Assembly (NCBI GenBank): GCA_964651115.1
Contig: CAZYXJ010000001.1
Location: forward strand, 286,085 to 350,084
DNA length: 64,000 bases
Direction: 5' to 3'
Source of the DNA: an uncultured Candidatus Saccharibacteria bacterium
GTDB taxonomy: Bacteria > Patescibacteriota > Minisyncoccia > Phycocordibacterales > JACOZG01
How positions within the stretch are numbered: position 1 is the stretch's first letter; every line of letters begins with the position of its first letter. The position numbers and the translations under genes are program-made. Of this stretch, positions 5,840 through 55,315 are shown one piece after another. The notes under the pieces are model-generated. The model saw nothing but the letters and a program-made list of their open reading frames with translations, searched no databases and was not told where the DNA came from.

Positions 5840-8412
<2,573 letters not shown>

Positions 8413-8415
8413 AAA

Positions 8416-8994: not shown

Positions 8995-8997
8995 AAG

Positions 8998-10195: not shown

Positions 10196-10931
10196 AAAAG
10201 GTCAGCGCCGTACCCAAAATAATAAAGGGAGCGAAAGGCAATTCACTTTTCATTGTATATGATCGCGAGCGGCCGGCAAAGCGAGACAAGATAATCAACA
10301 GGAGACCGACGACGGCTCCGAGCCAAAAGGCCAAGACCATGGCCGAGACGCCGCGCGTGGGCCCCAAGAGCAAGCCAACCGCCAGCGCCAACTTGGCATC
10401 GCCAAAGCCCATCCAACGCCCGCCCGAGAAGTACCAGAGCGCCGCAAAAAAAGCGGCCAGACCCAGCGCCGCCCCAAGCGCGGCCACCAATCGTCCCTCG
10501 CTAGCGGCCAAGAGCGCCGCCGCGGCGCTGGCGGCGTAAACCAAACCATCGGGAATAATTTGGTGCCGCAAATCGTAAACCGTGATCACCACCAACAAAC
10601 TCCAAATGATCGCCGCCAAACCGGCCCCGAGCCAAGTGGCCGACTGACTTACAATCGCGACAAACAAAAAGCCCGTGGCCAGCTCGACTAACGGATATTG
10701 CGCTGAGATGGCGCTACCACAACGCCGACAGCGACCGCCTTGCCAGATGTAGCTAAAGACGGGCACCAACTCAAACCACCGGAGCGAGCGATTGCAGGCC
10801 AAGCAACGCGAGCGGCCATTATAAATCCGCCAACCACCGGCGCCGGTGTTGTAGCGATAAATAACAACGTTAAGAAAACTGCCGACGATTAAACCAAAGA
10901 GAAAAGAGACTATTTCTAGCCAGATATCCAT
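10164..10931 (-). CDS. pilD: prepilin peptidase (A24 family)
   Basis: N-terminal TM, then a CxxC...CxxC zinc-binding region (CLACNRSL...CRRCGSAI), then multipass-membrane A24 architecture. Confidence 0.9.
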   Translation of the reverse strand: MDIWLEIVSFLFGLIVGSFLNVVIYRYNTGAGGWRIYNGRSRCLACNRSLRWFELVPVFSYIWQGGRCRRCGSAISAQYPLVELATGFLFVAIVSQSATWLGAGLAAIIWSLLVVITVYDLRHQIIPDGLVYAASAAAALLAASEGRLVAALGAALGLAAFFAALWYFSGGRWMGFGDAKLALAVGLLLGPTRGVSAMVLAFWLGAVVGLLLIILSRFAGRSRSYTMKSELPFAPFIILGTALTFFASINVFTLF

Positions 10932-11001
10932 CGCTCTAGTATATCATGAGACACGCAAAACCCCGCTCTGATTAGAGCGGGGTTTTGGAGTAGAGAAAAA
11001 C

Positions 11002-11442
11002 TTACAAACAGGTCAAATTAGTATCGGCCAAAACCGGGCTCGAAGCTAATTCGCCAGCATATCCAGTTGAATCTACACAATAGAAACCACCACTCCCAAG
11101 AGCAGAGGTTTGAATACCCCACGCGCTCGGCAGAGTGCCACCGGAAGCGTCGTTATCAAAACAGCTTACAGTAACTCCACTTCCCAAAGCTGTACCAGCG
11201 GCAGTAACCAGACGACTCAACCCTCCAGTTGCCGTAGAATCGCACACAGCGTCCACATACGAACCAGATGAATTTGCTCCGAGCTCAGCCTCGGCTCGAG
11301 CGGAAGACAAGCTTGCAACAGCCGAAGCTTCTTTGGCCTTCTGACGAGCACTACCAAGCGAGGTCAAAACAATACCCGAAAGAATACCGATGATCGCAAT
11401 GACCACCAAGAGTTCGATCAAAGTAAAACCTTTACTTTTCAT
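11002..11442 (-). CDS. pilA: type IV major pilin
   Basis: [22 protein letters not shown] prepilin leader. The start is the internal ATG at 11442..11440. The longer ORF-track start at 11637 would overlap pilC. Confidence 0.85.
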
Positions 11443-11505
11443 TATATTAATCGTTATTTTATAAACCTTTGTTCGACCAACTTTGATAAAGTTGTGACGC
11501 CTTTC

Positions 11506-11534
11506 ATTATAATACGGCCGAGGTAGCGCCACAA
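11506..11534 (-). promoter_or_regulatory. candidate sigma70-like promoter for the pilin gene
   Basis: On the minus strand, TTGTGG then a 17-nt spacer then TATAAT, inside the pilC-pilA intergenic region. Confidence 0.3.
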
Positions 11535-11569
11535 TCGGCCTGTGGACAACCGCTCCAATCAAACTCCAC

Positions 11570-12778
11570 TTAGAAGCCCGAAGCGAGATTGTAGATCGGG
11601 ACCAAAACCGAGGTGAGCAGGATGCCCACGCCCACACCCAAAAAGACGATCATCGCTGGTTCGATCAGGTCCACCAGAGTGTCGACGGCGTTATAAACTT
11701 CGCGCTGGTAAAAGCGCGACATCGTATCGAGCACAAAACCCAACTTCCCCGTCTCCTCACCGACGCGGATCATCTGGATCATAATCGTCGGCACCTCAGG
11801 ATGCTTGGTGAGGATGGCCGAAATGGCATTGCCCGACTTAACGCCCTCCGAGGCCTCTCGCAAAATGCTCTGGTAGACGTCATTGCCCACCACGTCACCG
11901 GTGATCTCTAGCGCCCGGACCATCGAGATACCGGCCGTCAACATGGTGGCGAGGTTATCGGCAATGCGCGAGAGATACAACTTTTGGTAAAGCACGCTCA
12001 CATAAGGCACCGTCAACTTAAAGCGGGCCAACTGCATCTGCCCCGACTTGGTGCGGAGCCACCGACCAACGAAAAAGCCCACCACGATTAGCAAAAAGAG
12101 GAGCAAAATACCGTAACTAACAAAGAAGTTAGAGATGGCAATAATGATCTTGGTGTAAATGGGGATCTCTTGCCCCGTCTCGAGCAAAATCGCCGAGAGT
12201 TTAGGGATCACATAGACGAGCATCAAAATCATCACCACCAAAAAGGAAAAGATGATGAAGGCGGGGTAGATCAGGGCGTTGCGGGCCTTAGAGACCAGCG
12301 CGTGCGAACGTTCGAGATAAGCCGCCAGATAAGAAAAGACTTCGGAGAGCTTGCCCGACTCCTCGCCGGCCTTAACCATATTGACGTAAAAGTCAGAAAA
12401 GACCTCCGGATGCTTGCCGAGCGCCTGCGAGATAAGGACGCCGGAGTTAAGATCGTCCGACACCGCCGTTAGCACCAAGCGGAGATGAGGCGTCTCAGCC
12501 TCTGAGGCCAAGAGGCGAAAGGTGGAGAGCGCCGAGACCTTGGCCTCAAACAGCGTCGAAATTTGCCGCGAGAGAAAGACGATCTCCTTCATCTTAACCC
12601 GACGACCACCGAACGAGAGGAGTGAGTTGAGCCGCCCACGATCCTCGACGGAACGGACATCAATAATCACCAGGCCGCGGCGCTGGAGCGAGCCGATCGC
12701 TAAATCGACGTTGGGCGCGTCAATGGTGCCGTCTTGCGGCTGGCCCTCCTTGGTCGTCGCTTTGTACTTAAAAATCAT
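11570..12778 (-). CDS. pilC: type IV pilus assembly platform protein (GspF/PilC family)
   Basis: 402 aa polytopic membrane protein with a duplicated GspF-type domain. Confidence 0.9.
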
Positions 12779-12787
12779 GGCTGGGAA

Positions 12788-13849
12788 TTATAAAATTCGT
12801 TCGAGCGCCCGGGGATTAAGCGAGAAGTGGTAAGCCACATCGGGAGCAATTTCGCCTCGACGCACCAGGTCCGCCAAGGAATGATTAAGATTAATCATTC
12901 CTTCCTCAATCCCCGTCTCGATCACCACGTCGATCTCGGCCGTGCGGCCCTCACGGATCAGGTTGGCGACGGCGTTATTATTAATCAACAGTTCGTAGGC
13001 CGGAATCAGCCCGCCCGACAATCGCGGAATAAGGCGCTGAGAAAAGATGCCGAGCAAAGAACCGGCCAGCTGGATGCGAATCTGATTTTGCTGAGCGGCC
13101 GGGAAGGAGTCGATAATGCGATCAACGGTTTGCGAGGCGCTGTTGGTGTGGAGCGTCGACAAGATTAGGTGCCCCGTCTCGGCGGCCGTCACCGCGGTGG
13201 AGATCGTCTCGGGACTGCGCATCTCGCCGATCATCGCCACGTTAACGTCTTGGCGGAACATTGAGCGCAAAGCGACTGGGAAGTCGACCGTATCGAAGCG
13301 GACCTCGCGCTGATCAATAATCGACTTATCTCCGGTAAACAAATACTCCACCGGATCCTCAATCGTCACGATGTGCTCGGCCCGATTTTGGTTAATGTGC
13401 TGGATCAATGAGGCGAGAGTCGTTGACTTGCCCTGACCGACCGGCCCAACCACCAAGAAAAATCCCTGCTTGCGCGAAGCAAATTCGAGCAGTTTATCGG
13501 GCAGATTAAGCTCGGCCATCGTCTTGATCTTGTTGGGAATCAATCTAAACGCCGCGCCCACCACTCCGCGCTGGAAAAAGGCGTTACCACGGAAGCGCGT
13601 GCCATCACTCGCCGTAAAAGCAAAATCGAGCTCCTTGGTTTTAAGAAATTCCTCGCGGTTGCCGGGCGTCATCACCTCCGAGATAAGGCCCAGCGTATCT
13701 TCGGCGGTAAGGAGAGGCTTTTTTACAATCGGGATCAAGTCGCCAGACACGCGGATCGTTGGATGACGCCCCACCGTTAAGTGGAGATCGGAGGCCCCCT
13801 CTTTAGAGACGATATAAATCAGGTCATCAAGCTCGGCTCGATAGTTCAT
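12788..13849 (-). CDS. pilT: type IV pilus retraction ATPase
   Basis: Walker A GPVGQGKSTT. Length 353 aa. PilT/GspE fold. Confidence 0.9.
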   Translation of the reverse strand: MNYRAELDDLIYIVSKEGASDLHLTVGRHPTIRVSGDLIPIVKKPLLTAEDTLGLISEVMTPGNREEFLKTKELDFAFTASDGTRFRGNAFFQRGVVGAAFRLIPNKIKTMAELNLPDKLLEFASRKQGFFLVVGPVGQGKSTTLASLIQHINQNRAEHIVTIEDPVEYLFTGDKSIIDQREVRFDTVDFPVALRSMFRQDVNVAMIGEMRSPETISTAVTAAETGHLILSTLHTNSASQTVDRIIDSFPAAQQNQIRIQLAGSLLGIFSQRLIPRLSGGLIPAYELLINNNAVANLIREGRTAEIDVVIETGIEEGMINLNHSLADLVRRGEIAPDVAYHFSLNPRALERIL

Positions 13850-13858
13850 TCTAAAAAA

Positions 13859-14251
13859 TTATTTTTTCTTGCTTTTAACAATGTCCATCACCTTGGCTAC
13901 CACCTCCGAGGGCGTGGCCGAAGCTTTAATAATGTAGCCATCGACGCCCAAACTCGTCCCCTTCTCCACGTCATCCTTTTGACCCAAGTTCGACAAAATA
14001 ATAATGGCGCCATCCTTCTGAACGCCACGCTGTTTTAACTGCTCGATCAACTGGAAACCGTCCATCTTGGGCATCAGCACATCAACCAAATAAATGTCGG
14101 CGCGCAAACCACCATCAATCTTTTCGAGTGCCTCTTGGCCATCGCGGGCCGTCACCACCTCAAAGTTATGTTCACCAAACTTGAGCGAATACATATCCAA
14201 CAGAAACTTGTCGTCATCCGTAATCAAAATTTTGTAGGTAGGTTCTGCCAT
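13859..14251 (-). CDS. single-domain response regulator receiver (CheY-like)
   Basis: 130 aa with receiver signature ILITDDD...DVLMPKMDG...K. It sits between pilB and pilT. Confidence 0.85.
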   Translation of the reverse strand: MAEPTYKILITDDDKFLLDMYSLKFGEHNFEVVTARDGQEALEKIDGGLRADIYLVDVLMPKMDGFQLIEQLKQRGVQKDGAIIILSNLGQKDDVEKGTSLGVDGYIIKASATPSEVVAKVMDIVKSKKK

Positions 14252-14283
14252 AATGCTTTAAGTATATTACTGGCCTTGCCAAA

Positions 14284-15855
14284 TCACAACTTCCCGACCT
14301 CCTCAAGTGGGATAAATCCGCCCAGCGCCTTCTTGAGCGCGTCGTCACGCATCGTGGTGAGACCTTTTTTCTTGGCCTGTTCAGCGAAACGCTCTTCGCT
14401 GGGCGCCTCAAGCAATAACTGCTCAAAATCGCGGTCCATAGGCAACATTTCAAACACCGCCATCCGGCCACGCAAGCCACCTGGGCAAGTTGGCGAGGGT
14501 TTGGGCCGATAAACCTGGCCCGGCAAAGTAAACTGCCCGCGCGCCGACTCGGGCACGTCGGACAAATACTTTTCCACCATCGTTTTTAAGCCGCCCTCCA
14601 AGGGCACTTCCTCCCGCGACTCCTCGCAGAGCGTTGGCAACAGGCGCTGAGCTACCGCCAAAATCAAGGTAGCCGAAATTAAGTAGGGCTCGACGCCCAT
14701 GTCGATCAAACGCGGAATCACGCCAGCCGTATTGTTGGTGTGCAAAGTGGAAAGCACTAAGTGACCAGTGAGCGCCGCCTGAACAGCCAGCTTGGCCGTC
14801 TCAGAATCGCGGATCTCACCAACCATGATGATATCGGGGTCCTGGCGCAAAATACTGCGCAAACCATTGGCAAAGGTGTAATGGATCTCCGGCCGGACTT
14901 GCGACTGGCTAATCCCTTCGATCGAATACTCCACCGGGTCCTCCAAGCTAACGACGTTATTCTTTTCGCGATCAATCTCTTGGAGCAAGGCGTAGAGCGT
15001 CGTCGTCTTACCCGAACCAGTCGGCCCAGTAATTAAGATCATGCCGTAAGGACGAGTGATGGCGCCCAAAAGTAGCTGTTTTTGCTCTTCGGAGAGGGCT
15101 AGATCATTAACGCGCAGACGCGTCCGTTCCGGATCCAAAATACGGATGACCACCTTTTCGCCATAGTAAGTCGGCATCGTGGAAACACGAAAGTCGATTT
15201 TGCGATTATCAATCCGCGCCGAAAAGCGGCCATCCTGGGGCTTGCGCCGCTCATCAAGCTTCATATTAGTAAGAATCTTGATACGCGCCACCACCGCGTC
15301 ATGGACCGAGACGGGCAAGAACAGCGAAGTATAGAGAACGCCGTCAACCCGGAAACGCACCTTAACCTGCTTGTCGGTTGGCTCGATGTGGATATCGGAA
15401 GCGGCCCCAGATGAGGCGTGCTGGAGGATCACCGCCACGATTTTGGTCACCGGCGCGTCCTCAACGATCTGAACCTCGCTGGGACGAGTGGGCTTTTTCT
15501 CCGTGGCAGTCTGCTTTTGCTCCTCGCTCTGGATCTCCAAATCCAAATCAGAGAGCGCCTTAGTCACCTGACTGGTCAAACCCTCATAACCCGTAATCAC
15601 CTGATCGAAATCTTTTTGACTAATGCCAAAAACTTTAAACGGCATCCCCACCTTGGTGGCGATAAACTGGAGCGCGTCGCGAGCCTCGATATTACCCGGA
15701 TCAATCATCCCCACCTCCAGCACGCCGTCACGGATCCTTAGCGGCACAAAATTATAGTACTGCGCCGAAGTCTTCGGGATGTACTTGAGAATATCTTGAG
15801 AAATTTTTTCTCCCGGTTCGATTTGCGCTACCGGAATCTCGGCGTCAGACGGCAT
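14284..15855 (-). CDS. pilB: type IV pilus assembly ATPase (GspE family)
   Basis: Walker A ITGPTGSGKTTTLYA. Length 523 aa. N1/N2 domains present. Confidence 0.9.
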   Translation of the reverse strand: MPSDAEIPVAQIEPGEKISQDILKYIPKTSAQYYNFVPLRIRDGVLEVGMIDPGNIEARDALQFIATKVGMPFKVFGISQKDFDQVITGYEGLTSQVTKALSDLDLEIQSEEQKQTATEKKPTRPSEVQIVEDAPVTKIVAVILQHASSGAASDIHIEPTDKQVKVRFRVDGVLYTSLFLPVSVHDAVVARIKILTNMKLDERRKPQDGRFSARIDNRKIDFRVSTMPTYYGEKVVIRILDPERTRLRVNDLALSEEQKQLLLGAITRPYGMILITGPTGSGKTTTLYALLQEIDREKNNVVSLEDPVEYSIEGISQSQVRPEIHYTFANGLRSILRQDPDIIMVGEIRDSETAKLAVQAALTGHLVLSTLHTNNTAGVIPRLIDMGVEPYLISATLILAVAQRLLPTLCEESREEVPLEGGLKTMVEKYLSDVPESARGQFTLPGQVYRPKPSPTCPGGLRGRMAVFEMLPMDRDFEQLLLEAPSEERFAEQAKKKGLTTMRDDALKKALGGFIPLEEVGKL

Positions 15856-15866
15856 GCGTAAAAAAG

Positions 15867-16310
15867 TTAATTATTGAGAAAATCGAACAGATCCTGCACC
15901 GCACTGCGCGGCGCGGCTGGGGCCGCCGGAGCCGCGGAGCGGCTCCCCGCCGACGAAGTGGCGGCGGCCGGCGAAGAAGTCGCCGGCCGGGCGGCATCCT
16001 TACCAATCGGCGCAAACGGATTAGGCCGACCTGGGGTTTGGGGCTTAAGCTCGGTCGAAAAGTCTTTGAAAGTTCGTAACTGGGGATAAATCTCGCTCTC
16101 CAAACTAATATTCTGCAAACTCAGCAACAGCGAGAGAAATTCGTCCGTCCCACCAGCCGCCGCGGTGCCATCCAAATAACCCACGGCCTCCACGCCCAGC
16201 AAATCCGCCGCCGGCTCTTGCCCACTCCGCCAAGCACGATAACCAAAGAACAAAGCCACGATCACAATGACCAGCAGCAACAATTTTAGCAGTGATGAAG
16301 TGCGTGACAT
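15867..16310 (-). CDS. hypothetical membrane-anchored Ala/Pro/Ser-rich protein, possibly PilP-like
   Basis: Probable start is the internal Met (MSRTSSLLKLLLLVIVIVALFF), with its ATG overlapping the pilO stop. C-terminal low-complexity AAPAAPA tail. Confidence 0.4.
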   Translation of the reverse strand: MSRTSSLLKLLLLVIVIVALFFGYRAWRSGQEPAADLLGVEAVGYLDGTAAAGGTDEFLSLLLSLQNISLESEIYPQLRTFKDFSTELKPQTPGRPNPFAPIGKDAARPATSSPAAATSSAGSRSAAPAAPAAPRSAVQDLFDFLNN

Positions 16311-16311
16311 A

Positions 16312-16854
16312 TTATTTGAGCCAATAGGTTTGAATTTCGACCGTGTAATCGTACACATCCTTCTCAGCCGAACTAAAGCCACTGGCCGTCAAATCAATCA
16401 AACGTAAACTTTGCGCCAGATCGTTGAGAAAGGCCTTAAAATTTTCGTACGAACCGGTCACCGAAAAGCCAAAGGTGACCGATCCATGCTTGTCGCTCCC
16501 CGCGGTGATCACCGACTCCTCAGTTTTGCCCTCCTCGGTCTTGATCTGGATGTTGCGAATATTCATCCCATAGGGCTTAGCGATGTTGTTGATGTCGATA
16601 ATCAAACGGACGTTATCAACGTTATCGGGCAAAAGCTTGTTAAGCCGATTAAGATCGTCTTCGGGAATTGCTCGGAACTCGGCCAAGAGCCGATCCTGTG
16701 CTTCGCGTAACTTTTTCGCATTACCGAGCGCCTGATTGAGCGTTTGCTTTTCCGTCTCGATCAAACGGATGTCGGCAAACAGGGGCTGAGTAAAGCGCAA
16801 GAAACCACCAACGGCGACGAGGATGATAATTAGTGGTCCAAGAAAGCGCAGCAT
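16312..16854 (-). CDS. pilO: type IV pilus assembly protein PilO-like
   Basis: N-terminal TM, then a coiled-coil, then a C-terminal domain. Assigned from its position after the pilM and pilN genes. Confidence 0.65.
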   Translation of the reverse strand: MLRFLGPLIIILVAVGGFLRFTQPLFADIRLIETEKQTLNQALGNAKKLREAQDRLLAEFRAIPEDDLNRLNKLLPDNVDNVRLIIDINNIAKPYGMNIRNIQIKTEEGKTEESVITAGSDKHGSVTFGFSVTGSYENFKAFLNDLAQSLRLIDLTASGFSSAEKDVYDYTVEIQTYWLK

Positions 16855-16856
16855 AA

Positions 16857-17471
16857 TTAAGAAGTTTGATTTTTAATTTGTTTGACCACCGATGGATCAG
16901 GCGTGAGCGTCAGCTTAAAGGTAACCTCTCCCGCGCCATCCAAGTTAAGGTCAGAAAAAATAAAGCTCTGGATCCGCCGCTTCTCGGCTGAAAAAACCTG
17001 CGTCTGTACCGCAATATCTTCGTAACTAGTGGCGGTGCCGGCAATGGTTACGCCCTCGGCCGAATAAGCAAAGGTTTTGTAACTAATCGTGGGCAGAGTG
17101 AGTTCTTCCAGCAAAGAAAAGAGGGGCAAAATCGTCTCGTGATCCACAATCACTCGCTCGGCCACCTCCAACTTAGAGTCAAGGCGCTGTAATTGGGTGA
17201 TGGTGTTCTGATCAATATTTTGGCGCTCCCGTTCGACCGAGGCCTTAAGACCACAACGCAAAACTCCCGTGCCATCCGCGGTACAAGGACGATCAATCTC
17301 GGCGCGCAAAATCCCCCGGTAAGCAAAAGCGCCACCGTAAATAGCGGCCGAGATCAAAAGGACGATCACGGCAATAACTAAAAGCAAGTTAGACGAGGAG
17401 GAACGCGGCCGCTCATTCTTGGTGAGCGCCGCCTTGGGAATGAACGAAGTTGGTGATGAACTCGGAGGCAT
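16857..17471 (-). CDS. pilN: type IV pilus assembly protein PilN-like
   Basis: N-terminal TM protein. Assigned from its position directly after pilM. Confidence 0.6.
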   Translation of the reverse strand: MPPSSSPTSFIPKAALTKNERPRSSSSNLLLVIAVIVLLISAAIYGGAFAYRGILRAEIDRPCTADGTGVLRCGLKASVERERQNIDQNTITQLQRLDSKLEVAERVIVDHETILPLFSLLEELTLPTISYKTFAYSAEGVTIAGTATSYEDIAVQTQVFSAEKRRIQSFIFSDLNLDGAGEVTFKLTLTPDPSVVKQIKNQTS

Positions 17472-17496
17472 ATCCGTCTAATAATAATACCACAAG

Positions 17497-18606
17497 TTAG
17501 TCTAAAGTTTGCAAATGTCGAAGCGCTAAACCAATCGCCACGGCAAAACCCGGACCCGCTTCGCTTAAAATTGGGGTTAAAAATGCGGGCGCGGCCACCA
17601 TCTCGAATGGTTTGCCGAGCGTCACCGGAATTTCGAAATTTTTTCCGGCCACTTCGACTAAGCCACGCAAGAGCGCGCCACCACCGATCAACACGATCTT
17701 ATTAACCGACCGACGATTCTTTTCTTGATACCGGCTAATCACCTTACTGACTTCCGAAAAAATAAATTCAACAATACTATTAACCGTCACCGACACATTG
17801 CGTCCATCATAATGCTCCACCAAGCCCACGGTGCGCTTAATCTCTTCGGCCTTAGCAAAATCCACCCCCAAGGAGCGCGATAAAGCTAGGGTAATGTCTT
17901 GCGAGCCCTTGGGGATGGTGTGCGAAGAACGGACAATCCCGTAATCCACAATCGCCATCTTGGTATTGGAGGCGCCGATGTCGAGCATGACAGTCGCATT
18001 CATCTCCCCGCCAAAGACAGAACGGATGGCACTAAAGGTCTCAATCTCAAAAAACGCTGGCTGGATGCCCATCTGTTTAGCAAATTCCTGATGCTGACTA
18101 ATAATGGTGTTGTGAATGGCCACCACTAAAACCTGGAGCTTGTTCTCGCTCGCCTCGGATCCACCGCCCTCACTCGGCAACACCCACCAATCCAGCGCCA
18201 CTTCGGAAATCGGTACGGGAATATATTTTCGCGCCTCAATCGGAATCACCTTAGGCAACAGATCACGACTCACCTTGGGAATCTCGATAATCGTCACCAA
18301 ACTTGAGCCCAGCGGGATCGAAAGCGATCCGAGTGTGGTAGTAACATTGGCCTCCTTAAATAGATCGCGCGTCACTTCTACCATCTTTTCGGGCGGCACA
18401 ATCGCGACCTGACCGACCGCCAAACTCCGATAAGGACCAGTGGCAATCTCGCCATAGGTTTCTAAAATCGCTCGGCCCTTTTCGCGTCGCAATTGCACGA
18501 CCTTGATTGAAGAGGTGCCCACGTCAATACCAATCACGCTGTTGGCCCGACGTTGGAAAAGATTAAAGGATTTAAAATTTAAAAGTTTTTCAAATGGACT
18601 CGCCAT
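17497..18606 (-). CDS. pilM: type IV pilus assembly protein PilM (actin-like ATPase fold)
   Basis: GIDVGTSSIKVV phosphate-1 motif. Length 369 aa. Confidence 0.85.
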   Translation of the reverse strand: MASPFEKLLNFKSFNLFQRRANSVIGIDVGTSSIKVVQLRREKGRAILETYGEIATGPYRSLAVGQVAIVPPEKMVEVTRDLFKEANVTTTLGSLSIPLGSSLVTIIEIPKVSRDLLPKVIPIEARKYIPVPISEVALDWWVLPSEGGGSEASENKLQVLVVAIHNTIISQHQEFAKQMGIQPAFFEIETFSAIRSVFGGEMNATVMLDIGASNTKMAIVDYGIVRSSHTIPKGSQDITLALSRSLGVDFAKAEEIKRTVGLVEHYDGRNVSVTVNSIVEFIFSEVSKVISRYQEKNRRSVNKIVLIGGGALLRGLVEVAGKNFEIPVTLGKPFEMVAAPAFLTPILSEAGPGFAVAIGLALRHLQTLD

Positions 18607-19762: not shown

Positions 19763-21286
19763 TCATTTATCTTCTAGAGAAAAAGTTGCAGGATCTTTCC
19801 CCTCGACAATATTGCCACTTAAATAAACATGGTTCTTGTCTTTTGAGTATCCGTATTCGCCCAAATCAACGAATGTCTCTGGGTCGGCACCTTCGATTAT
19901 CCTATTTCCGTAATACACATGACTCTTGTCCTTCGCATAGTAGCTGTTGATCGGGTGGAACGTGGCATGGTCAGCAGTGGCTATGATCGGACCTTCATCG
20001 AAAGAACCTTCAATGTAATAGACGTTGTTCTTATCTTTCTGATAGGCACCGATATCATCGACAATATTTTTGAGCGTATCAGGATCGCCAGTCGGGATGT
20101 ATTTGTAAGTGTAGTAAAGCTTGTCGCCATCCCTACCATATTCACTCGACATCACCATAAATGTTGCGGGATTAGCTCCTTCAACAAGATCCCCACGCCA
20201 GTAGACATGATTCGCGTCTTTCATCCATAATCCCCCGTGCTCCGAATCTTCGACACCCACAAGAGTAGCCACGTCCACGCCTTCGTAGCCCTCGTCAGGG
20301 TAGATCCAGTTAAAAACCCGACTCTTATCCTTGCCGAGGCCCGCGCTGAAGTAAACATATGTCTCGGGGTCTGCACCCTCAATCTTGTAGCTTCCAGAAA
20401 GACCGAGACCGCCAAGGTACCCATCTAAGTACACGCCGTTCTTGTCCTTCACGAAGTTTCCTTCCTCGTCAATAGCCATGAAGCTCGCCACGTCATACTG
20501 GACATCGTGCGGTGCGCAGTCGTACTTGTAGACGTAACGAGAATCCTTTGCCCATATGCTGTTGAATATGACGAAGGAAGAGAGATCAATGTCGGGACGA
20601 GGCGTATCTCCGCAGTACAGAACATCGTCTCGAAACACGAAACCATAATGCATGTTTCGAGCGGGGCTCTTCCAACTGCTGAACTTGCCGTCTGAGTAAT
20701 GCAAAGTCAGGTAGCCAGTTTCCGCAGGAAACTCTGTGCGAACGCGAGCCTCAGTCTTTCCGTCCTCGTCAAAATCCTTGAAGACGACGCCCCATTCACC
20801 CTCTCTGAGAAAGGAAGGAATTACGCCAAGGTCTTTGTGGTACACCTGTTCGTAGGAAGACCCACCATACACAAAGAGTTCAGTCCTCGTTGATTTGTCG
20901 CTTGGAATTACATCCTGCTTGAGGACAATGATTTTGCCCGGGGCAAATTTTGAATTGCTCCTGACAAGGATGTCATGCCCTCTTCCATTGGAACCGTAGA
21001 GGAGTATAGCGTTTGCATTGTCGCCGCAACTCTCGATTATCTGAGAAAGAAAAGTGTTCAATTGCTCGACCGGAGCAGGATCCTTGATGTCACCTTCTCC
21101 CTTAGAGCACATGATGTGAAGTGTATTTGCTGGAACATCAATGTTGCCGAGACGACCTTCGACATTGAATTCGGATTGGTTTGACCACGAGATGTATGCC
21201 CATAAGGCATATGCCCCGAGCAGTAGAATAATCACGCCAAAAAGTACGGCCAGTGATTTTAAGAAAATCTTAAATGGTTTGCTCAT
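19763..21286 (-). CDS. membrane-anchored secreted protein with C-terminal DKNYY-family repeats
   Basis: N-terminal TM. The C-terminal half has tandem KDKNHVYY...GADPETF repeats matching the DKNYY family pattern. GC looks lower than the neighbouring sequence. Confidence 0.7.
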   Translation of the reverse strand: MSKPFKIFLKSLAVLFGVIILLLGAYALWAYISWSNQSEFNVEGRLGNIDVPANTLHIMCSKGEGDIKDPAPVEQLNTFLSQIIESCGDNANAILLYGSNGRGHDILVRSNSKFAPGKIIVLKQDVIPSDKSTRTELFVYGGSSYEQVYHKDLGVIPSFLREGEWGVVFKDFDEDGKTEARVRTEFPAETGYLTLHYSDGKFSSWKSPARNMHYGFVFRDDVLYCGDTPRPDIDLSSFVIFNSIWAKDSRYVYKYDCAPHDVQYDVASFMAIDEEGNFVKDKNGVYLDGYLGGLGLSGSYKIEGADPETYVYFSAGLGKDKSRVFNWIYPDEGYEGVDVATLVGVEDSEHGGLWMKDANHVYWRGDLVEGANPATFMVMSSEYGRDGDKLYYTYKYIPTGDPDTLKNIVDDIGAYQKDKNNVYYIEGSFDEGPIIATADHATFHPINSYYAKDKSHVYYGNRIIEGADPETFVDLGEYGYSKDKNHVYLSGNIVEGKDPATFSLEDK

Positions 21287-26319: not shown

Positions 26320-26393
26320 GCGCGTGTAGCTCAGTTGGTTAGAGCACCGAGCTTATACCTCGGCGGTCCTTGGTTCGACTCCAAGCACGCGCA
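26320..26393 (+). tRNA. tRNA-Ile, anticodon TAT (UAU)
   Basis: Acceptor gcgcgtg/cacgcgc. Anticodon stem ccgag/ctcgg with loop cttatac. T-arm cttgg-ttcgact-ccaag. Discriminator A. No CCA. Confidence 0.7.
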
Positions 26394-26404
26394 CTACTTG
26401 GCTT

Positions 26405-39288: not shown

Positions 39289-39897
39289 TTAATTCGACGA
39301 AGAACTAAACTTAAAGGTAGACAAAATATCCATGAGCGCTTGGCGATACTGATCAATCTCCGCCTGAGAAGGAATCTTGCCGTATCCGAAATTACTTGAA
39401 ACGGTTAGAGTCTTACCTTTCACCTGGGCCCGAGCATACTCACTCCACGTCGAAGCATCGGCGTCTAAAAAGCCCGAAAGCGCGTACCCCTGACCATCAA
39501 TCGTGGCATTAATAATGATCGACTTAGAAGATACTCCCGTCCCCGTAAAGGTACAGAAATTTCCTTGGCTGTCTCCATTACCATAAGAAATCACTCCTTT
39601 CGGAAAACTAATACTAAGGCAGTCACCCACCTTGGTGATAACAGCCTCATCGGGATATCTAAAACTAAGATTATTCGCCAGATCATTGTAGGTTGACCAC
39701 CCGTTTACCGTCGACGTAAGGACAGGGGCATTTTGCCGAGCCAAAAGCTGGATCAACTGTTGCTGAAGCGCAACAACTTGACTCAACAATTGCTGAATCA
39801 GAGCACTATCCGTCACTGCCGCCCGACTGGTCAACGGAACAACCACCGCGGTTAAGACTAAAGTGCAGGCACAGAACTTAAAGATTAGTTTTTTCAT
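39289..39897 (-). CDS. hypothetical secreted protein
   Basis: Signal peptide, then a Q-rich helical segment DSALIQQLLSQVVALQQQLIQLL. Confidence 0.5.
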   Translation of the reverse strand: MKKLIFKFCACTLVLTAVVVPLTSRAAVTDSALIQQLLSQVVALQQQLIQLLARQNAPVLTSTVNGWSTYNDLANNLSFRYPDEAVITKVGDCLSISFPKGVISYGNGDSQGNFCTFTGTGVSSKSIIINATIDGQGYALSGFLDADASTWSEYARAQVKGKTLTVSSNFGYGKIPSQAEIDQYRQALMDILSTFKFSSSSN

Positions 39898-49323: not shown

Positions 49324-49665
49324 TTATTTCTTAGCTTCGGGGGTAGCGCTCGCGGCCTTAGCAGCAGCAATCTCGCTCTCGCGCTTCTTCTGCTCTAACT
49401 CCTTTTGCATCTTACCACCATGCTTAATAAACTTACGCGTCAGAGAAAACTCACCCAACTTGTGGCCGACCATATCTTCGGTCACCAAAACCTCCACGTG
49501 GTCACGACCATTGTGGACGCCGAACTTGAAGCCGACCATTTCTGGGCTGATCGAGGAGCGACGAGCCCAAGTTTTGATCACATTAGACTCGCCCGGCTTC
49601 TTACCGGCGATTTTCTTCAATAATTTGGGGTCCACATAGGGCCCCTTGGCGAGCGATCGTGACAT
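49324..49665 (-). CDS. rpsS: 30S ribosomal protein S19 with Lys/Glu-rich C-terminal extension
   Basis: S19 core [11 protein letters not shown]... plus a charged tail of about 20 aa. Confidence 0.9.
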
Positions 49666-49714
49666 AGATAAAGGAAAACACTGTCATCCACCATGGCGGA
49701 CTAGACAGTGTTCC

Positions 49715-49742
49715 ATATTAACAGAACTCTTTTCGATGTCAA
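49715..49742 (-). promoter_or_regulatory. candidate sigma70-like promoter driving rpsS and the downstream operon
   Basis: On the minus strand, TTGACA then a 16-nt spacer then TAATAT, directly upstream of rpsS. It is followed by a perfect 9-bp inverted repeat (49677..49712) and a T-rich tract. Confidence 0.45.
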
Positions 49743-49761
49743 CTAAGCCCTGTTTTTGGTC

Positions 49762-52173
49762 CTAACGAAAGAGACTGCGCAGTGACTCGGCGACGCCCGA
49801 TAGCTGCTTCCAGGCTCCCGAACTAGTTGGGCGAGCCACCGTAACTGGGCCATCCGAGAAGTCGATCGAACCGGAGGTGCACTGGCCGCCACCCGGGGTC
49901 GTTAGGTCACACACAGCGGCCAAATAGAAGGTGCCGGTAGCTTGACCCTCAGGAACAGTCCAAGTAGCCACACCAGTATTGGGGTGCTCGGGGATCAGCC
50001 AAGCCACTGGAGCGGTCTTGTTTTCGTTATAGAGGGCGATCGAAACGGAACTATTGGCCGGGAAATTGGCGCTCGTCCACTTAATCTCATAAGTCTGACC
50101 AATGGTAAAGGTTTGGGAGGCACGTGGCGAAGTGAGGCTAATGGTTGGTTCGGTCGAAGCGGGGCACTGGGGCAACGTCACACTCGCCACGGGACTAGTA
50201 CCATAAGCGGCCGAACTAACTGAATACTCAATCGTCTTACCGCCCCAGTTGGAATACTGACGAGTGGCGGTATAATTTTTACCAGCCGTCTGGATCCGCT
50301 CGCCGCCCGTAAAGTCAAAATAGCCCGTTGAGCCGCCAATCACCTTCTCTTGAAGGCGATACTCACCAGAAACGGCTGGTTCCCATTTAATCGCCACATT
50401 CTGGTAGCGACTACCGCTCTGATCCACGCACGAGGTCGTGATTTTAGGAGCCGGAACGCCAGCTACTGGCGCCGGGGCGCTACCCACCGTCACTGTAATC
50501 TGGTCAACATCTGTCCCCCCGACTCCGACGCAACTAACCTCAAAAACCTTAGTTCCGCTGCGACTGTAAGAATAGGATCTCTCACCGGAAACGCCAACCG
50601 AACTATCGTTTTCCGGATCGCTCAAAGTACAACTCGTCGCATTAGTGCTCGTCCAGCCGATGGTAAATTTAGTGTTTTGGGCCACAACCTGGTTCTGCGG
50701 ACTGGCATTGGCCGTGACGTTCACCGTCGGAGCCGCCGCTGGATTTACAATCTTGATCGGCTTATCGGAAAAGTCCCAGCGATCACCGGGACAGGTTCCG
50801 GCCACATTTACGAGGTCACAGAACACCCCTACATAGTACTCGCCCGTGGGCTGACCAGCCGGAATTGTCCACCAATAAGCGCCAGTGTTGGCTAATTCTG
50901 GCTTGATGTAAAGATTCTCACCAGAAGTGGTGTTGGTCTTCTTGAGCGTGAGGGTAATTGAGCCGTTGGCGGGAATGTTCTCCGCCGCCCACTTAATTAC
51001 ATAAGTCTTGCCGATTTCCAAGGTTTCGCCATTGTTGGGCCAGAGAATGGTCTCTTTGGAAAGAGAATCGCTCGCTGAGCCCCTCACTTTAACTTTAACC
51101 TTATTGCTAATACCTTGGGTAAACACCATATATACACTATAAGTTTTCCCTGGAATCAGGTCAGCAGGAGCAATGGCGCGAAGCAGAGTACTCCCCCATT
51201 GCGTTACCACTGCCCGGTACTGACCATCATTTTCGAAATAAACGATGGGATCTTTTGTCGGTCCAGTGCCCAACAAATTCAAGCCCTCAATAGCAAACTC
51301 AGCACCAGCATCAACAACAAAGTCATCATTGGCCTTAGAGCTAATCCTGGTTATTGCCGTAAGAGCCGTCGCGCAGGCGGGCGTCTTGAAGCTCTTAGCG
51401 CGAGAAAATTGCCCACCGGTAGAAACACGGACTAGGTAAGTGGTTTCCGGCTCAAGAGCCAAGGTGCCAATCTTATCCCAACGGGTAAAGCCTCGGAAAT
51501 CAATCGAGTTCTCTTCAGCCGAACGATTCCAGGTCTTAGTATTGTTGGCAAACGAGTCAGAACCAGGGCGAGAAATATCAACCCAGAAATATCCGTCCCC
51601 GGAAGCCCGACCACTCCAAGAAATTGAGCCGTCCAACCCCTCGTCAGTACAAGCGACGGAGACACTCGGAGTAGTGGGAACGTTAACCCGCTCGTCCACA
51701 ATCTTAAAGGTGCCATTGCTCCAATCATAGGAGTTAGCCGAACAGCGTTCGTCTACGCCCTTTTTGTCGCAAAAAATACCCAAGGTGTAAGTCCCCGGTT
51801 CAATATCTTCACTAATCGTCCAATCCCAGTTGCCAGTATTGTCTAATTCGGTTTTCACATCACTAATCTCCCCGCGGGCATCCTTAAGTGTTAGCGTCAC
51901 CACGGCGCCAGCGGGGAAATTTACGCCACTCCACACCACCGGGTAAGTTCCTTTAGTCACCAAAACTTCGCCTCCATTGGGATAGAGGAGTTGAACGCTA
52001 GGACCAGCCGCTGGCTGACTCAAGATCAGCGCGAGTTGCTCCTGGAGCTTCACAATCATCGCCTGCAGTTGAGCAATGAGAGCACTGTCGTTATTTGTCT
52101 GGGCCTGTACCAATCCCGCCCCACCCAAAACCAGAACTGCGAGCACGATCATCGCCGTCAAAAATTTCTTCAT
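49762..52173 (-). CDS. large secreted surface protein with three Cys-pair repeats of about 100 aa
   Basis: Signal peptide, a Q-rich helix, then three copies of the pattern P-NGGE-...-GxTYxIxW-...-NTG-xWxWTIP-...-GxYxLG-FCD-...-C-...-DFSD-IV. Confidence 0.7.
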   Translation of the reverse strand: MKKFLTAMIVLAVLVLGGAGLVQAQTNNDSALIAQLQAMIVKLQEQLALILSQPAAGPSVQLLYPNGGEVLVTKGTYPVVWSGVNFPAGAVVTLTLKDARGEISDVKTELDNTGNWDWTISEDIEPGTYTLGIFCDKKGVDERCSANSYDWSNGTFKIVDERVNVPTTPSVSVACTDEGLDGSISWSGRASGDGYFWVDISRPGSDSFANNTKTWNRSAEENSIDFRGFTRWDKIGTLALEPETTYLVRVSTGGQFSRAKSFKTPACATALTAITRISSKANDDFVVDAGAEFAIEGLNLLGTGPTKDPIVYFENDGQYRAVVTQWGSTLLRAIAPADLIPGKTYSVYMVFTQGISNKVKVKVRGSASDSLSKETILWPNNGETLEIGKTYVIKWAAENIPANGSITLTLKKTNTTSGENLYIKPELANTGAYWWTIPAGQPTGEYYVGVFCDLVNVAGTCPGDRWDFSDKPIKIVNPAAAPTVNVTANASPQNQVVAQNTKFTIGWTSTNATSCTLSDPENDSSVGVSGERSYSYSRSGTKVFEVSCVGVGGTDVDQITVTVGSAPAPVAGVPAPKITTSCVDQSGSRYQNVAIKWEPAVSGEYRLQEKVIGGSTGYFDFTGGERIQTAGKNYTATRQYSNWGGKTIEYSVSSAAYGTSPVASVTLPQCPASTEPTISLTSPRASQTFTIGQTYEIKWTSANFPANSSVSIALYNENKTAPVAWLIPEHPNTGVATWTVPEGQATGTFYLAAVCDLTTPGGGQCTSGSIDFSDGPVTVARPTSSGAWKQLSGVAESLRSLFR

Positions 52174-52252
52174 AAATAAAATTAAAGCTAAAAAACTTAC
52201 GCTCTTCTTAAGCTCTAGTATAGCGCTATTTTATCTGCTACGCTAAATCGGC

Positions 52253-53056
52253 TTGTCCACAATCATGCCCTCACCGAAAAAAATTTGGCTGATTTTACTG
52301 GGCCTAGTTGGCCTCTACCTTGCCGCCTCGGCCTTGGTCTTTTTTGGTGTTAAGTACGGCTGGACCAACACGGCCGGCCTGGCTGATCCAGGCCGGCCGA
52401 CGGCGGCGGCCAACCCCGTTTGGGCCAACAACGAAGAGTGGTCAACCCTGGCCGCCGCGCTAATTAAAGATCGCTCAGTCATTGAGGCGGCCGCCGCCCA
52501 AGTCAATCTGCGTCCCCGCCTGCTAGTGGCCCTCATCGTTCCCGAACAGCTCCGCCTCTTCCACACCGAGCGAGCGGTTTTTAAACAAATCTTCGCGCCG
52601 CTAAAAATTCTCGGCAACCAGAGCCAGTTCTCCTGGGGCGTGGCCGGCTTTAAGCAAGCCACGGCCGAGCAAGTTGAGGTCCACCTCACCAATCAACAAT
52701 CCCCCTTCTATTTGGGGCCGGAATTTGAAAATTTTCTAACCTTTACCACCACCAACCCTGATCAAGAACGCTTTGAACGGCTCGTTAACGAGCGTAATCA
52801 CTTCTACTCCTATCTCTACGCGGGATTATTTACCCGTCAGATTATGGCTCAGTGGGAACGAGCGGGCTGGCCCATCAGCGATCGACCAGAAATCTTAGGC
52901 ACGCTGTTTAACATCGGTTTTGATAATTCTCACCCCAAAGCCAACCCCGTCATGGGTGGGGCGGCGATTGAGATTGCCGGCACGACCTACTCCTTTGGCC
53001 GGTTAACTTACGAATTTTACTACTCCGAACTCCTGCAAGAAATTTTTCCGCGCTAA
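52253..53056 (+). CDS. hypothetical N-terminally membrane-anchored protein (267 aa)
   Basis: TM helix IWLILLGLVGLYLAASALVFF. No recognised motif. It lies inside the insertion on the opposite strand. Confidence 0.5.
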   Translation: MSTIMPSPKKIWLILLGLVGLYLAASALVFFGVKYGWTNTAGLADPGRPTAAANPVWANNEEWSTLAAALIKDRSVIEAAAAQVNLRPRLLVALIVPEQLRLFHTERAVFKQIFAPLKILGNQSQFSWGVAGFKQATAEQVEVHLTNQQSPFYLGPEFENFLTFTTTNPDQERFERLVNERNHFYSYLYAGLFTRQIMAQWERAGWPISDRPEILGTLFNIGFDNSHPKANPVMGGAAIEIAGTTYSFGRLTYEFYYSELLQEIFPR

Positions 53057-53673
53057 CTCTGAGGGCAGATTGACTTTTGCCCCAATTGCGACCGAGCCAA
53101 CAGAGCATCACCAAGATTTAATTGACCATTAGCCGTGCCATCATACTTGGCGTTACTGCCTGCGGGGACCAAAGCAATCTTACCTTTAATGGCTAGCGCG
53201 TCGGTCATATCGACGGCCCCGTCACTATTTACGTCGCCCAAGAGATTACGAAAATAAACGTTGCGATCAGTCCCAGAAGCAGTCCCACTAATCTTGCCCG
53301 ATAACGTCACCTCATAACAACCGCCATTAGGCAAAGCACCGAGCAACAGATCCAAGCTGAGGCCATCTGGCGCCAGGGAGACCCCTACCGGCGAACTGGT
53401 CGTGCCTGTTAAGACGTGCCGGACCACAATCGGACTGCCCGTTAACTCAACCACGTCATTAAAAACTGCCCTTAACTTGGTCACTCCCCCCAACCGTGGC
53501 TCGATGGTAATCGCAGTCGTCGTCCCCGGAGCCGCCGACTTATTAAGCGTCAGCGACTGCTCACCCGCCGCACCCTGAGTCTTCACCGACGTCCAGGTTA
53601 CCGAAGTCGCCTCCCCAAAAGCCACATTCGCCCAAAGCAACAAACTTAACACCGCCAAATACTTCATAAGCAA
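53053..53673 (-). CDS. secreted protein with C-terminal dockerin-like repeats
   Basis: Signal peptide. C-terminal GDVNSDGAVDMTDALAIKGKI and DGTANGQLNLGDALLARSQL resemble the duplicated calcium-binding dockerin segment. Confidence 0.55.
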   Translation of the reverse strand: MLMKYLAVLSLLLWANVAFGEATSVTWTSVKTQGAAGEQSLTLNKSAAPGTTTAITIEPRLGGVTKLRAVFNDVVELTGSPIVVRHVLTGTTSSPVGVSLAPDGLSLDLLLGALPNGGCYEVTLSGKISGTASGTDRNVYFRNLLGDVNSDGAVDMTDALAIKGKIALVPAGSNAKYDGTANGQLNLGDALLARSQLGQKSICPQS

Positions 53674-53762
53674 AAACTAATTATTAAAGCGAACACTTCC
53701 ATAGTAGCACAAACAACCCCCGCCACTGGCGGGGGTTGTTGATAACCGAACTGAACCTAGAG

Positions 53763-54380
53763 TTAGCGAGTCGTGACTGGCTTCTCTGAGCAAGAAGCGC
53801 TGTGGCCCATGTTAAAGCGGGCAAACAGAGCGTCACCCAAATTTACTTCGCCAGTGCGATTAACGTCATAGATAGCCAAGTCCGTCGTGGTACCGATAAC
53901 GTTCTTCAGCTTAAGAACGTCAGCCCCAGAAACTAGGCCATCACCCGTAACGTCACCAGCCAAAACCTTAACGTAAACCGCCTTGTCGCCCGTCTCGGCC
54001 AAGCCATCAAAGCGCTTATTAACGTCAATTTTGTAACAAGCACCGTCAGGCAAGTTGGCATACTCAAGCTCCAAGCGCTTACCGTCGTCGCTTAAGAAGG
54101 TCGAAGTTGGACGATGAAGGATCCCGGTACTCAAGCTACGAGCATGAGTATAAACTGGGCGCTTTTGGACTGGTAAGTCAAAGTTGATCACCACCTTCTG
54201 CAAACCACCCTGCCGGGTCTCCGTCGCAGTCGCCAGCGGGCTAAGAGCCAATGATTGCTCGCCTACCACCGCGTGACTGCGGACGCTCTCCCAGCTAACT
54301 ACCGTTGCGCCAGTTGAAGCGTAGGCCAGCGTTAGGCCAAAGGCCAAAGCTGCCCCCGCGCCAATAAAGATTTTGTTCAT
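53763..54380 (-). CDS. secreted protein with C-terminal dockerin-like repeats (paralogue of 53053..53673)
   Basis: Signal peptide. C-terminal GDVTGDGLVSGADVLKLKNVI and DVNRTGEVNLGDALFARFNM. The N-terminal domain aligns with that of its neighbour. Confidence 0.55.
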   Translation of the reverse strand: MNKIFIGAGAALAFGLTLAYASTGATVVSWESVRSHAVVGEQSLALSPLATATETRQGGLQKVVINFDLPVQKRPVYTHARSLSTGILHRPTSTFLSDDGKRLELEYANLPDGACYKIDVNKRFDGLAETGDKAVYVKVLAGDVTGDGLVSGADVLKLKNVIGTTTDLAIYDVNRTGEVNLGDALFARFNMGHSASCSEKPVTTR

Positions 54381-54463
54381 GAACCGTAAAAGTTAGTCTA
54401 ATCAATAAAACCACGAAAACTCTTCCATCCTACGTAAAAAGACGGAAAAGTCAACCCCGAGTA

Positions 54464-55315
54464 TTAGCGACGACGATCAATCTTCTTGCGTCGACTAAGC
54501 ACCGCGCCGCGAGAATATTTCTTACGTCGGCGAGTCTTAACGCCGAAAGCGAGCTTGCCAGTTGGCGTCTTAGGGCCGCGGCGCAAACCAATGGGCTGGC
54601 GACCCTCACCACCACCGTGAGGATGGTCTACCGGGTTCATCGCGCTACCACGAACCGTGGGGCGCACGCCCAACCAACGCGAACGACCGGCCTTACCACG
54701 ACTGACCAACTTGTGTTCATCGTTAGAAACGGCGCCAACCGTGGCCCAAGACTTTTCGTTAATCTTGCGCACCTCGGTGGAAGGCATCTTAACCGTGCTG
54801 TAACCGGCGTCATTGCCCAAAATCTGAGCGAAACTGCCCGCCGAGCGCACCAGTCGAGCCCCGCCAGCTGGTTGAACTTCGATATTGTAAATAAAAGTAC
54901 CTACCGGGATCTTGTAAAGAGGCAGGCGATTACCGGGTTTAGCATCAGCTTCAACCGAAGCAACAAACTGGTCCCCGACCTTAACCCCACCAGGCAACAA
55001 GACATAACGGCGAGTACCGTCAGCATAAACAACCAAACCAATAAAACCGGAACGGTTAGGATCGTACTCGATCGTCTCCACGCGAGCGGGAATATTTTTC
55101 TTGTCGTAAGAAAATTCGATTTCGCGATAGAGGCGCTTGTGGCCACCACCTTTATGACGAGTAGTGATCCGGCCATCAGCGTTGCGACCAAAGGCGCGCT
55201 TGCGACCATAAGTCAAAGACTTATGTGGCTCCGAGGCCGACAAGGTCTTGCGATAATCAATCGAAATCAGCTCGCGTCGACCGGGACTAGTAGGTTTGTA
55301 TTTTTTCGTGGCCAT
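54464..55315 (-). CDS. rplB: 50S ribosomal protein L2
   Basis: 283 aa with ...HPHGGGEGR... the conserved L2 motif. Confidence 0.95.
   Translation of the reverse strand: MATKKYKPTSPGRRELISIDYRKTLSASEPHKSLTYGRKRAFGRNADGRITTRHKGGGHKRLYREIEFSYDKKNIPARVETIEYDPNRSGFIGLVVYADGTRRYVLLPGGVKVGDQFVASVEADAKPGNRLPLYKIPVGTFIYNIEVQPAGGARLVRSAGSFAQILGNDAGYSTVKMPSTEVRKINEKSWATVGAVSNDEHKLVSRGKAGRSRWLGVRPTVRGSAMNPVDHPHGGGEGRQPIGLRRGPKTPTGKLAFGVKTRRRKKYSRGAVLSRRKKIDRRR

Follow-up and report, generated by a model that had tools for sequence, protein, structure and literature searches.

In a stretch of 64,000 nucleotides from an uncultured Candidatus Saccharibacteria bacterium (assembly GCA_964651115.1, contig CAZYXJ010000001.1, positions 286,085 to 350,084; hereafter the window), two adjacent minus-strand open reading frames (ORFs) inside 53053-54380, here named protA and protB, encode small proteins in which an immunoglobulin (Ig)-like domain is followed by a C-terminal dockerin. 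Judged by profile matches, the two domains are one module of ~185 residues, which recurs in at least 338 protein clusters and mostly stands at the very C-terminus of the protein that carries it, and protA and protB are cargo-less versions of this widespread module. Their genes belong to a block that is inserted into the S10 ribosomal protein operon. The reading that we favour, and that we hold to be about as apt to be right as wrong, is that protA and protB are exported, disulfide-stapled and calcium-binding surface adaptors or adhesins, which follow the tethering logic of the wider family and engage a receptor other than a recognisable cohesin.

protA and protB are paralogs with 35% identity over 184 residues (E = 5e-31), in agreement with an earlier note on this DNA that had described a tandem pair of secreted proteins with a shared N-terminal domain and dockerin-like repeats; the peptides quoted in that note are found in both ORF translations, and the N-terminal domains of the two proteins align. 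Public gene calls place the start of protA at the ATG at 53667, which gives 204 aa, while the use of a TTG start gives an ORF of 206 aa (53053-53673). Both proteins look secreted, as the note had proposed, since a hydrophobic segment with an AxA-type cleavage site stands at each N-terminus (in protA between AFG and EA, after residue 18), the signal peptides having been assigned by rule (hydropathy and the -3/-1 rule) rather than by a dedicated predictor. Past the N-terminal segment, hydropathy reveals no second hydrophobic span in either protein. Each is most likely a Sec-exported protein of ~19 kDa that forms one compact unit, presumably located at the cell surface. There are exactly two cysteines in protA and in protB, and the retention of both fits an extracytoplasmic location.

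The dockerin homology of both proteins is genuine and far beyond chance. The Pfam profile Dockerin_1 (PF00404) matches protA with 27.1 bits and protB with 29.6 bits, compared to a gathering cut-off of 22.9, and it also matches 35 of 71 full-length relatives. Two 12-residue calcium-type loops are present in each protein, namely DVNSDGAVDMTD and DGTANGQLNLGD in protA (at residues 145-156 and 176-187) and DVTGDGLVSGAD and DVNRTGEVNLGD in protB. Across 141 modules of the family, D occupies loop position 1 in 96-100% and position 12 in 99-100%, G occupies position 6 in 88-96%, and K or R is found at position 17 in ~80%, while positions 10-11 are mostly L-G/S, where type I dockerins have S-T. Some loops have T at positions 3 and 5, where D/N-type residues are expected, and the ortholog of protB in L003, a contig of another metagenome-assembled genome (MAG) labelled 'uncultured Candidatus Saccharibacteria bacterium', has N where protB has T145 (DVNGDG vs DVTGDG). 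The retained ligand positions suggest that protA and protB bind calcium at two sites. A profile of 37 family modules matches solved dockerins, among them XynY 2ccl_B (E = 9e-9), 1ohz_B and CelS 1daq, and also the Clostridium perfringens NagH dockerin 2jnk and the CipA X-module-dockerin 2b59_B. Among the called ORFs of the window, no further one has dockerin-type loops or matches the dockerin or Ig hidden Markov models (HMMs) of the family.

The predicted structure is in line with the sequence. The AlphaFold2 model of mature protB, computed with the family alignment, reaches a predicted local distance difference test (pLDDT) score of 94 and a predicted template modelling (pTM) score of 0.88 over both domains. 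It consists of a beta-sandwich (~27-139) and helices at 152-160, 168-171 and 181-189 (precursor numbering, pLDDT above 90), and both long helices begin at loop position 10 of their repeat, in F-hand style. The proposal of the earlier note that these repeats are dockerin-like holds, because PF00404 lies above threshold in both proteins and paired loop-helix motifs are modelled. The note had further called them type I dockerins, and here the duplicated loop-helix and the PF00404 match are in accord with it, but the label itself is doubtful, because an Ig-like module packed on a C-terminal dockerin is the layout of the type II X module-dockerin (XDoc) dyads (PMC5141474).

In structure, the sandwich matches CopC and the Ig domains of S-layer proteins (SbsC, Sap) best, and not X modules, and a similarity to Big_5 (PF13205) is seen below threshold in relatives. 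A polar motif on the sandwich (W30, S32, H36, E54, R56 and G59 in protB numbering) is conserved to at least 91% at each position of the 141 modules; protA has Q at the position of the histidine. Neither the sandwich alone nor the Ig-dockerin unit has a model in Pfam or NCBIfam, and an NCBIfam scan of the four proteins of the locus and three relatives was empty. The two cysteine positions covary, with both present in 111, neither in 22 and one only in 8 of the 141 modules (Fisher p = 5e-18, a value that counts the modules as independent and leaves shared ancestry uncorrected), and a disulfide between Cys115 and Cys197 appears to tie the C-terminal tail back onto the sandwich. Among the 22 modules that lack the pair, Arg is the most frequent residue at the sandwich position (12 of the 22), and the chain of such Cys-less modules usually ends in ..xP rather than ..CP, which suggests that a contact between Arg and the C-terminal carboxylate may replace the disulfide.

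The size of the family was determined by an exhaustive HMMER search with a profile of the two paralogs against 1.84 billion cluster representatives, which gave 338 proteins at E <= 1e-10 and 1888 at the looser cut-off of E <= 1e-3. With few exceptions, the 150 best matches cover profile positions ~20-207, which corresponds to the whole mature protein with both domains. Of 156 full-length modules in 146 proteins, ~85% end at most 3 residues from the C-terminus, most commonly with ..ALCP or ..ASCP. The carriers range from 155 to 2239 aa, and their other domains comprise thrombospondin type 3 repeats, Chlamydia PMP repeats, beta-helix, Big_5, subtilase S8 and lectin domains, as well as Kelch, GHL10 with PKD, RCC1 propellers and glycosidase-like domains. 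Further stand-alone members (P0123, P0020 and P0062) lie in unrelated gene contexts. Outside Saccharibacteria, the sole member with a taxonomic label comes from a Planctomycetales MAG (L004), and a metagenome scan with alignment A5 yielded 16 loci without a shared neighbour gene, on contigs that read as high-GC; GC was measured for the Planctomycetales locus (0.64) and judged from the ORFs for the metagenome loci. The same kind of scan with an alignment of close relatives (A4) gave no match, and a word-index homolog search with protB returned only protB itself. A C-terminal sorting signal (LPXTG, PEP-CTERM and similar) was considered for the module and rejected, as the module ends in ..C-P and has neither a transmembrane segment nor a basic tail.

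The genomic position of the two genes is unusual. By Pfam, the gene order is tuf, S10, L3, L4, L23 and L2, then protB, protA, a 267-aa ORF on the other strand and an 803-aa secreted protein, and then S19, L22, S3 and L16 (Table 1). Since this order is confirmed on both sides, the four-gene block of 4.8 kb (49666-54463) interrupts the S10 operon after rplB and before rpsS, and because one of its genes lies on the opposite strand, simple co-transcription of rpsS and the later genes from a start ahead of rplB is not possible. In the cultivated Saccharibacterium Southlakia epibionticum, a gap of 3 bp separates rplB from rpsS (supplement of PMC10633639), hence the insertion is lineage-specific. The block is conserved in L003, where protB is 95% identical, and partly in L022, whose ribosomal proteins are 66-92% identical to those of the window (85% for L2). 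Directly after rplB, L022 encodes a stand-alone, single-copy protein of 196 aa (P0015) that is 36% identical to protB, and since the same site is thus occupied in a more distant relative, the insertion is not recent. The terminator-like hairpin that follows protB folds with a dG of -31.7 kcal/mol (z = -4.1), and a terminator-like hairpin is also found after P0015. The locus shows that, in one lineage of Saccharibacteria, genes for surface proteins can reside at the rplB-rpsS junction, which is otherwise very conserved.

Both genes are real and under selection. The exact protB protein is present in public assemblies, and two MAGs as well as two read-assembled contigs carry both ORFs in intact form. 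Between the window and L003, the ratio of nonsynonymous to synonymous substitution rates (dN/dS) is 0.074 for protB and 0.083 for protA, based on 38-55 synonymous differences, where rplB has 0.018, tuf 0.020 and the opposite-strand ORF 0.136, and protA and protB are therefore under purifying selection, as is the opposite-strand ORF by its own value. The GC content of the locus equals that of its flanks.

Table 1. Positions in the window of the two module genes, their parts and the surrounding features.
Feature	Position	Strand	Description
rpsS (S19)	49324..49665	-	Downstream boundary of the insertion; Pfam
803-aa secreted protein	49762..52173	-	Signal peptide, helix (DSALIAQLQ..LQEQL), about seven or eight Ig/macroglobulin (MG)-like domains; last gene of the insertion
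267-aa ORF	52253..53056	+	N-terminal membrane anchor; converges on protA, with a 4-bp overlap with its stop; in the insertion
protA gene	53053..53667	-	204-aa precursor, architecture as protB; Cys117 and Cys201
protA dockerin	53077..53250	-	~Residues 140-197; Pfam match at residues 145-192 of the 206-aa form
protA Ig-like domain	53251..53610	-	~Residues 20-139; aligns with the protB domain; family Ig HMM E = 1e-27, protA being part of the training alignment of that HMM
Terminator-like hairpin	53712..53740	-	13-bp perfect stem, 23 nt after the protB stop, then UUGUUUGUG
protB gene	53763..54380	-	205-aa precursor, ATG start; signal peptide, Ig-like domain, dockerin, C-terminal Cys
protB Cys197 codon	53790..53792	-	C-terminal Cys, putative disulfide partner of Cys115
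protB dockerin	53799..53969	-	~Residues 138-194; loops 143-154 and 172-183; PF00404, AlphaFold2 helices, PDB dockerin matches
protB Ig-like beta-sandwich	53970..54308	-	~Residues 25-137; polar motif W30 to G59, and Cys115
protB signal peptide	54318..54380	-	Residues 1-21, predicted cleavage between AYA and ST; hydropathy and -3/-1 rule
Promoter-like TTGACT-16-TAGGAT	54427..54454	-	Between rplB and protB; consensus scan, weak evidence with 5 sites found vs 3.1 expected
rplB (L2)	54464..55315	-	Upstream boundary of the insertion; Pfam

Of the two remaining proteins encoded in the insertion, the 267-aa one looks helical, judged from its sequence, and has no match in Pfam, NCBIfam or the PDB; its ORF is conserved in L003 but is not part of the L022 arrangement, and it is called as 263 aa in L001. 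In the 803-aa protein, Pfam Kre9_KNH is found in three stretches, while the other beta domains measure ~90-100 residues, and a PDB sequence search returned nothing significant. Its AlphaFold2 model is all-beta with a pLDDT of 57, as the alignment is shallow (6 sequences in the homolog search), and the 50 best Foldseek matches of this low-confidence model are Ig/MG/fibronectin type III (FN3) arrays of alpha-2-macroglobulin, complement and cytokine receptors. The L003 version has 620 aa (L003 9713-11575), and the alignment of the DNA breaks within the gene, with the MAG being 88-95% identical, which indicates that a surface protein has gained or lost domains between closely related genomes. In L022, P0015 and its hairpin are followed by a secreted protein whose helix after the signal peptide, QQSALSVIYQQLLFLQQQI, is the one also seen in the 803-aa protein of the window (DSALIAQLQAMIVKLQEQL). 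This helix motif, in the form DSALIxQL...LQxQL or, in L022, QQSALSVIYQQLLFLQQQI, occurs directly after the signal peptide of three otherwise unrelated secreted proteins (window 39289-39897 and 49762-52173, L022 4113-4621), and it may serve the surface proteins of this lineage as a shared element for anchoring or oligomerisation.

A second line of evidence concerns type IV pili (T4P). In a simple neighbour-joining distance tree, protA and protB are mutual nearest neighbours and group with the module of P0013, a grouping that rests on distances of ~0.64-0.67. P0013 is a 769-aa protein (L021 3652-5961, GCA_964574265.1) with an internal Ig-dockerin module at residues 193-380, and its gene lies between minor-pilin genes in a T4P cluster with an ATPase, PilC and several GFTL[IV]E-type pilins, while P0013 itself has no pilin match in Pfam. 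The window also encodes a complete T4P cluster (7855-18606), ~35 kb from protA and protB, with PilM, PilB-type and PilT-type ATPases, PilC, a prepilin peptidase and four N_methyl pilins. At the end of this cluster, a gene encodes a protein of 185 aa that is hydrophobic at its N-terminus, matches no family and has no similarity to P0013.

Elsewhere in the window, a loosely defined Shine-Dalgarno (SD)-like motif precedes 9 of the 55 longer minus-strand genes, and translation initiation in this genome seems to be largely SD-independent. Positions 26320-26394 encode a tRNA-Ile with the anticodon UAU, which is uncommon in bacteria, where AUA is usually read by a lysidine-modified CAU tRNA. A 507-aa protein with a hydrophobic N-terminal segment (19763-21286) contains four DKNYY-family stretches (E = 4e-61).

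The earlier note had taken the dockerins to imply a cohesin-bearing partner and hence a scaffolded surface complex, and this part of its interpretation finds no backing. The Cohesin profile (PF00963) had no match in the 44 proteins of the window that were scanned with Pfam, nor in 10 proteins from the loci of family members (module-bearing proteins and their neighbours), and there is no Cohesin among the precomputed Pfam labels of six further relative contexts. The 803-aa neighbour, which the note had singled out, has domains of ~90-100 residues, compared with ~150 for cohesin-sized ones, and there is no cohesin among its 50 top structural matches, a weak negative given the low-confidence model. 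The 64-kb window likewise contains no cohesin, scaffoldin or fusion of a carbohydrate-active enzyme (CAZyme) to a dockerin. A classical arrangement, in which a scaffoldin or anchoring protein encoded elsewhere in the genome binds protA and protB through its cohesin modules to build a cellulosome-like surface complex, has the genuine dockerin homology in its favour, as well as the precedents of clostridial XDoc dyads that bind type II cohesins (PMC5141474) and of the proposed 'planctosome' sets (PMC6461901). We nevertheless regard it as unlikely, given the outcome of the cohesin searches, the absence of catalytic or other cargo from protA and protB, and the L-G/S in place of S-T at loop positions 10-11. 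Docking onto type IV minor pilins or the pilus tip, with protA and protB as exchangeable host-binding adhesins, would agree with the position of P0013, the nearest module in the tree, in a large protein among minor-pilin genes, with the full T4P set of the window and with the reported role of T4P in host association of Saccharibacteria (PMC9894109, PMC11623550). It is quite improbable all the same, since protA and protB lie far from the pilus cluster and are without a prepilin motif, the 185-aa protein of that cluster is not homologous to P0013, P0013 lacks a pilin match, and the tree is a simple one built from large distances.

It is very doubtful that protA and protB are instead calcium-stabilised envelope components, i.e., S-layer accessory or lattice subunits in which the dockerin serves calcium-dependent folding or assembly and has no specific receptor. 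The resemblance of the Ig domain to those of SbsC and Sap and the sub-threshold Big_5 similarity of relatives would suit such a role, and the site in the ribosomal array, together with an own promoter-like site and the terminator-like hairpin, fits abundant expression. Both proteins, however, are very small for S-layer subunits, and the module is elsewhere a C-terminal appendage of enzymes and lectins, which fits a tether better than a lattice subunit. That the two ORFs are spurious, or that they are genes left without a function after horizontal transfer, is a practically negligible option; it could draw on the fact that no relative above 50% identity was found outside the lineage among the cluster representatives and that the family apparently stems mostly from high-GC, Planctomycete-like genomes. 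Against it stand the intact ORFs in MAGs and read-assembled contigs, the homolog at the same site in L022, the GC content and the key residues of the calcium loops, which are all kept, and it is effectively ruled out by the dN/dS of 0.07-0.08 with 38-55 synonymous differences.

In the adaptor or adhesin reading that we prefer, the Ig-like sandwich would pack against the two-repeat dockerin, and the disulfide would fasten the tail to the sandwich. The dockerin helices would then bind a beta-sheet receptor other than a recognisable cohesin, while the polar patch of the Ig domain (W-x-S-x-x-x-H ... E-x-R-x-x-G) could offer a second contact. The candidate receptors would be, first, the Ig-array surface protein encoded downstream, then components of the pilus, and last a structure on the host surface. 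Several points weigh against this reading. A tether without cargo has no obvious job, and no partner of protA and protB was identified, the partner search having covered 64 kb of a contig that measures at least 445 kb. Calcium binding is predicted from the sequence, the disulfide is deduced from covariation among modules that share ancestry, and the face of the predicted dockerin that would bind a cohesin may be buried against the Ig domain rather than exposed. In addition, the secreted protein of L022 and the 803-aa protein, the foremost receptor candidate, share their N-terminal helix only (BLAST E = 0.13).

The way in which Saccharibacteria and other members of the Candidate Phyla Radiation (CPR) attach to host cells and live on them is a central question, and the list of known surface factors is short once type IV pili are set aside. 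The locus defines an Ig-dockerin C-terminal family of at least 338 clusters that is not described as a unit in current domain libraries, and it supplies a small and easily expressed protein pair for probing what a non-cellulosomal dockerin binds. What appears to be new is that the shared N-terminal domain and the dockerin together are one widespread, undescribed and Cys-stapled C-terminal module; the cargo-less copies of it, their position in the S10 operon of one Saccharibacterial lineage and the relative in a pilus cluster likewise appear to be new. A more far-reaching conjecture, which we consider rather unlikely, is that the Ig-dockerin module is a cohesin-independent docking system of ultrasmall epibionts, in which abundant calcium-dependent adaptors, produced from genes inside the ribosomal protein array, would join the Ig-array protein or T4P to the host surface, with a cis version in P0013. 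If true, it would constitute a new class of Saccharibacterial attachment factor and provide a function for hundreds of unannotated C-terminal modules of the type found in Planctomycetes, Verrucomicrobia and Chlamydiae (PVC). If protA and protB are ordinary calcium-stabilised surface proteins, the value would be limited to better annotation.

Dockerins outside cellulosomes were reportedly described by Peer and colleagues in 2009, and many non-cellulosomal dockerins in the literature are without an established partner. Cohesin/dockerin sets with non-cellulolytic roles were proposed as a 'planctosome' for freshwater Planctomycetes (PMC6461901), and in S. epibionticum, the one Saccharibacterium that is genetically tractable, a dockerin-annotated envelope protein is essential (PMC10633639). 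Since non-cellulosomal dockerins are known and a dockerin-annotated protein has been reported from a Saccharibacterium, the bare observation of dockerins in the window is not surprising. Like protA and protB, the dockerins of the planctosome, of Omnitrophota giant proteins and of SEML1_0315 from S. epibionticum belong to PVC, Omnitrophota and CPR bacteria and lie outside cellulose degradation, and a role as adhesin or assembly module has been suggested for them. They differ in that they are parts of large multidomain proteins (SEML1_0315 has 927 aa and another genomic context than protA and protB), for which no Ig-dockerin-Cys unit, cargo-less form or site in the S10 operon has been described. 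With the type I cellulosomal dockerins (Xyn10B/XynY 1ohz and 2ccl, CelS 1daq), protA and protB share the duplicated loop and helix with D1, G6, D12 and K/R17. In contrast to these, they are not attached to a carbohydrate-active enzyme, an Ig domain always precedes the dockerin, loop positions 10-11 are L-G/S instead of S-T, and the window offers no cellulosome context.

The closest parallel is found in the XDoc dyads of Clostridium thermocellum ScaA/CipA and CipB (PDB 2b59, 5k39). In the clostridial type II system, an Ig-like X module of 98 residues packs on a dockerin of ~66 residues at the C-terminus of the scaffoldin, stabilises it for cohesin binding and, as part of the dyad, engages type II cohesins on anchoring proteins (PMC5141474). 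Both systems have an Ig-like sandwich of ~100 residues followed by a dockerin of ~60 residues with two F-hand loops and a short linker helix, which is C-terminal in its carrier and forms one rigid unit, here according to the AlphaFold2 model. The family profile aligns with 2b59_B (E = 5.5e-6) over the end of the X module and the dockerin, and its alignments to 2b59_B and 3kcp_A comprise query positions 103-187 only, i.e., the last strands and the dockerin. On the other hand, the Ig domain looks nearer to Big_5/S-layer-type Ig domains and CopC than to the clostridial X module, and the module contains a covarying Cys pair, or Arg and a terminal ..xP. Where the XDoc dyads belong to Bacillota, this module comes from a Saccharibacterium and from high-GC, Planctomycete-like genomes, and neither a scaffoldin carrier nor a type II cohesin partner was found in the window with protA and protB, which carry nothing else. 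By analogy, the Ig-dockerin module is likely to share the XDoc logic as well as the XDoc layout, but it is not filed in the XDoc family; because diverse extracellular cargo hangs on the module elsewhere, it would work in the manner of an XDoc tethering dyad.

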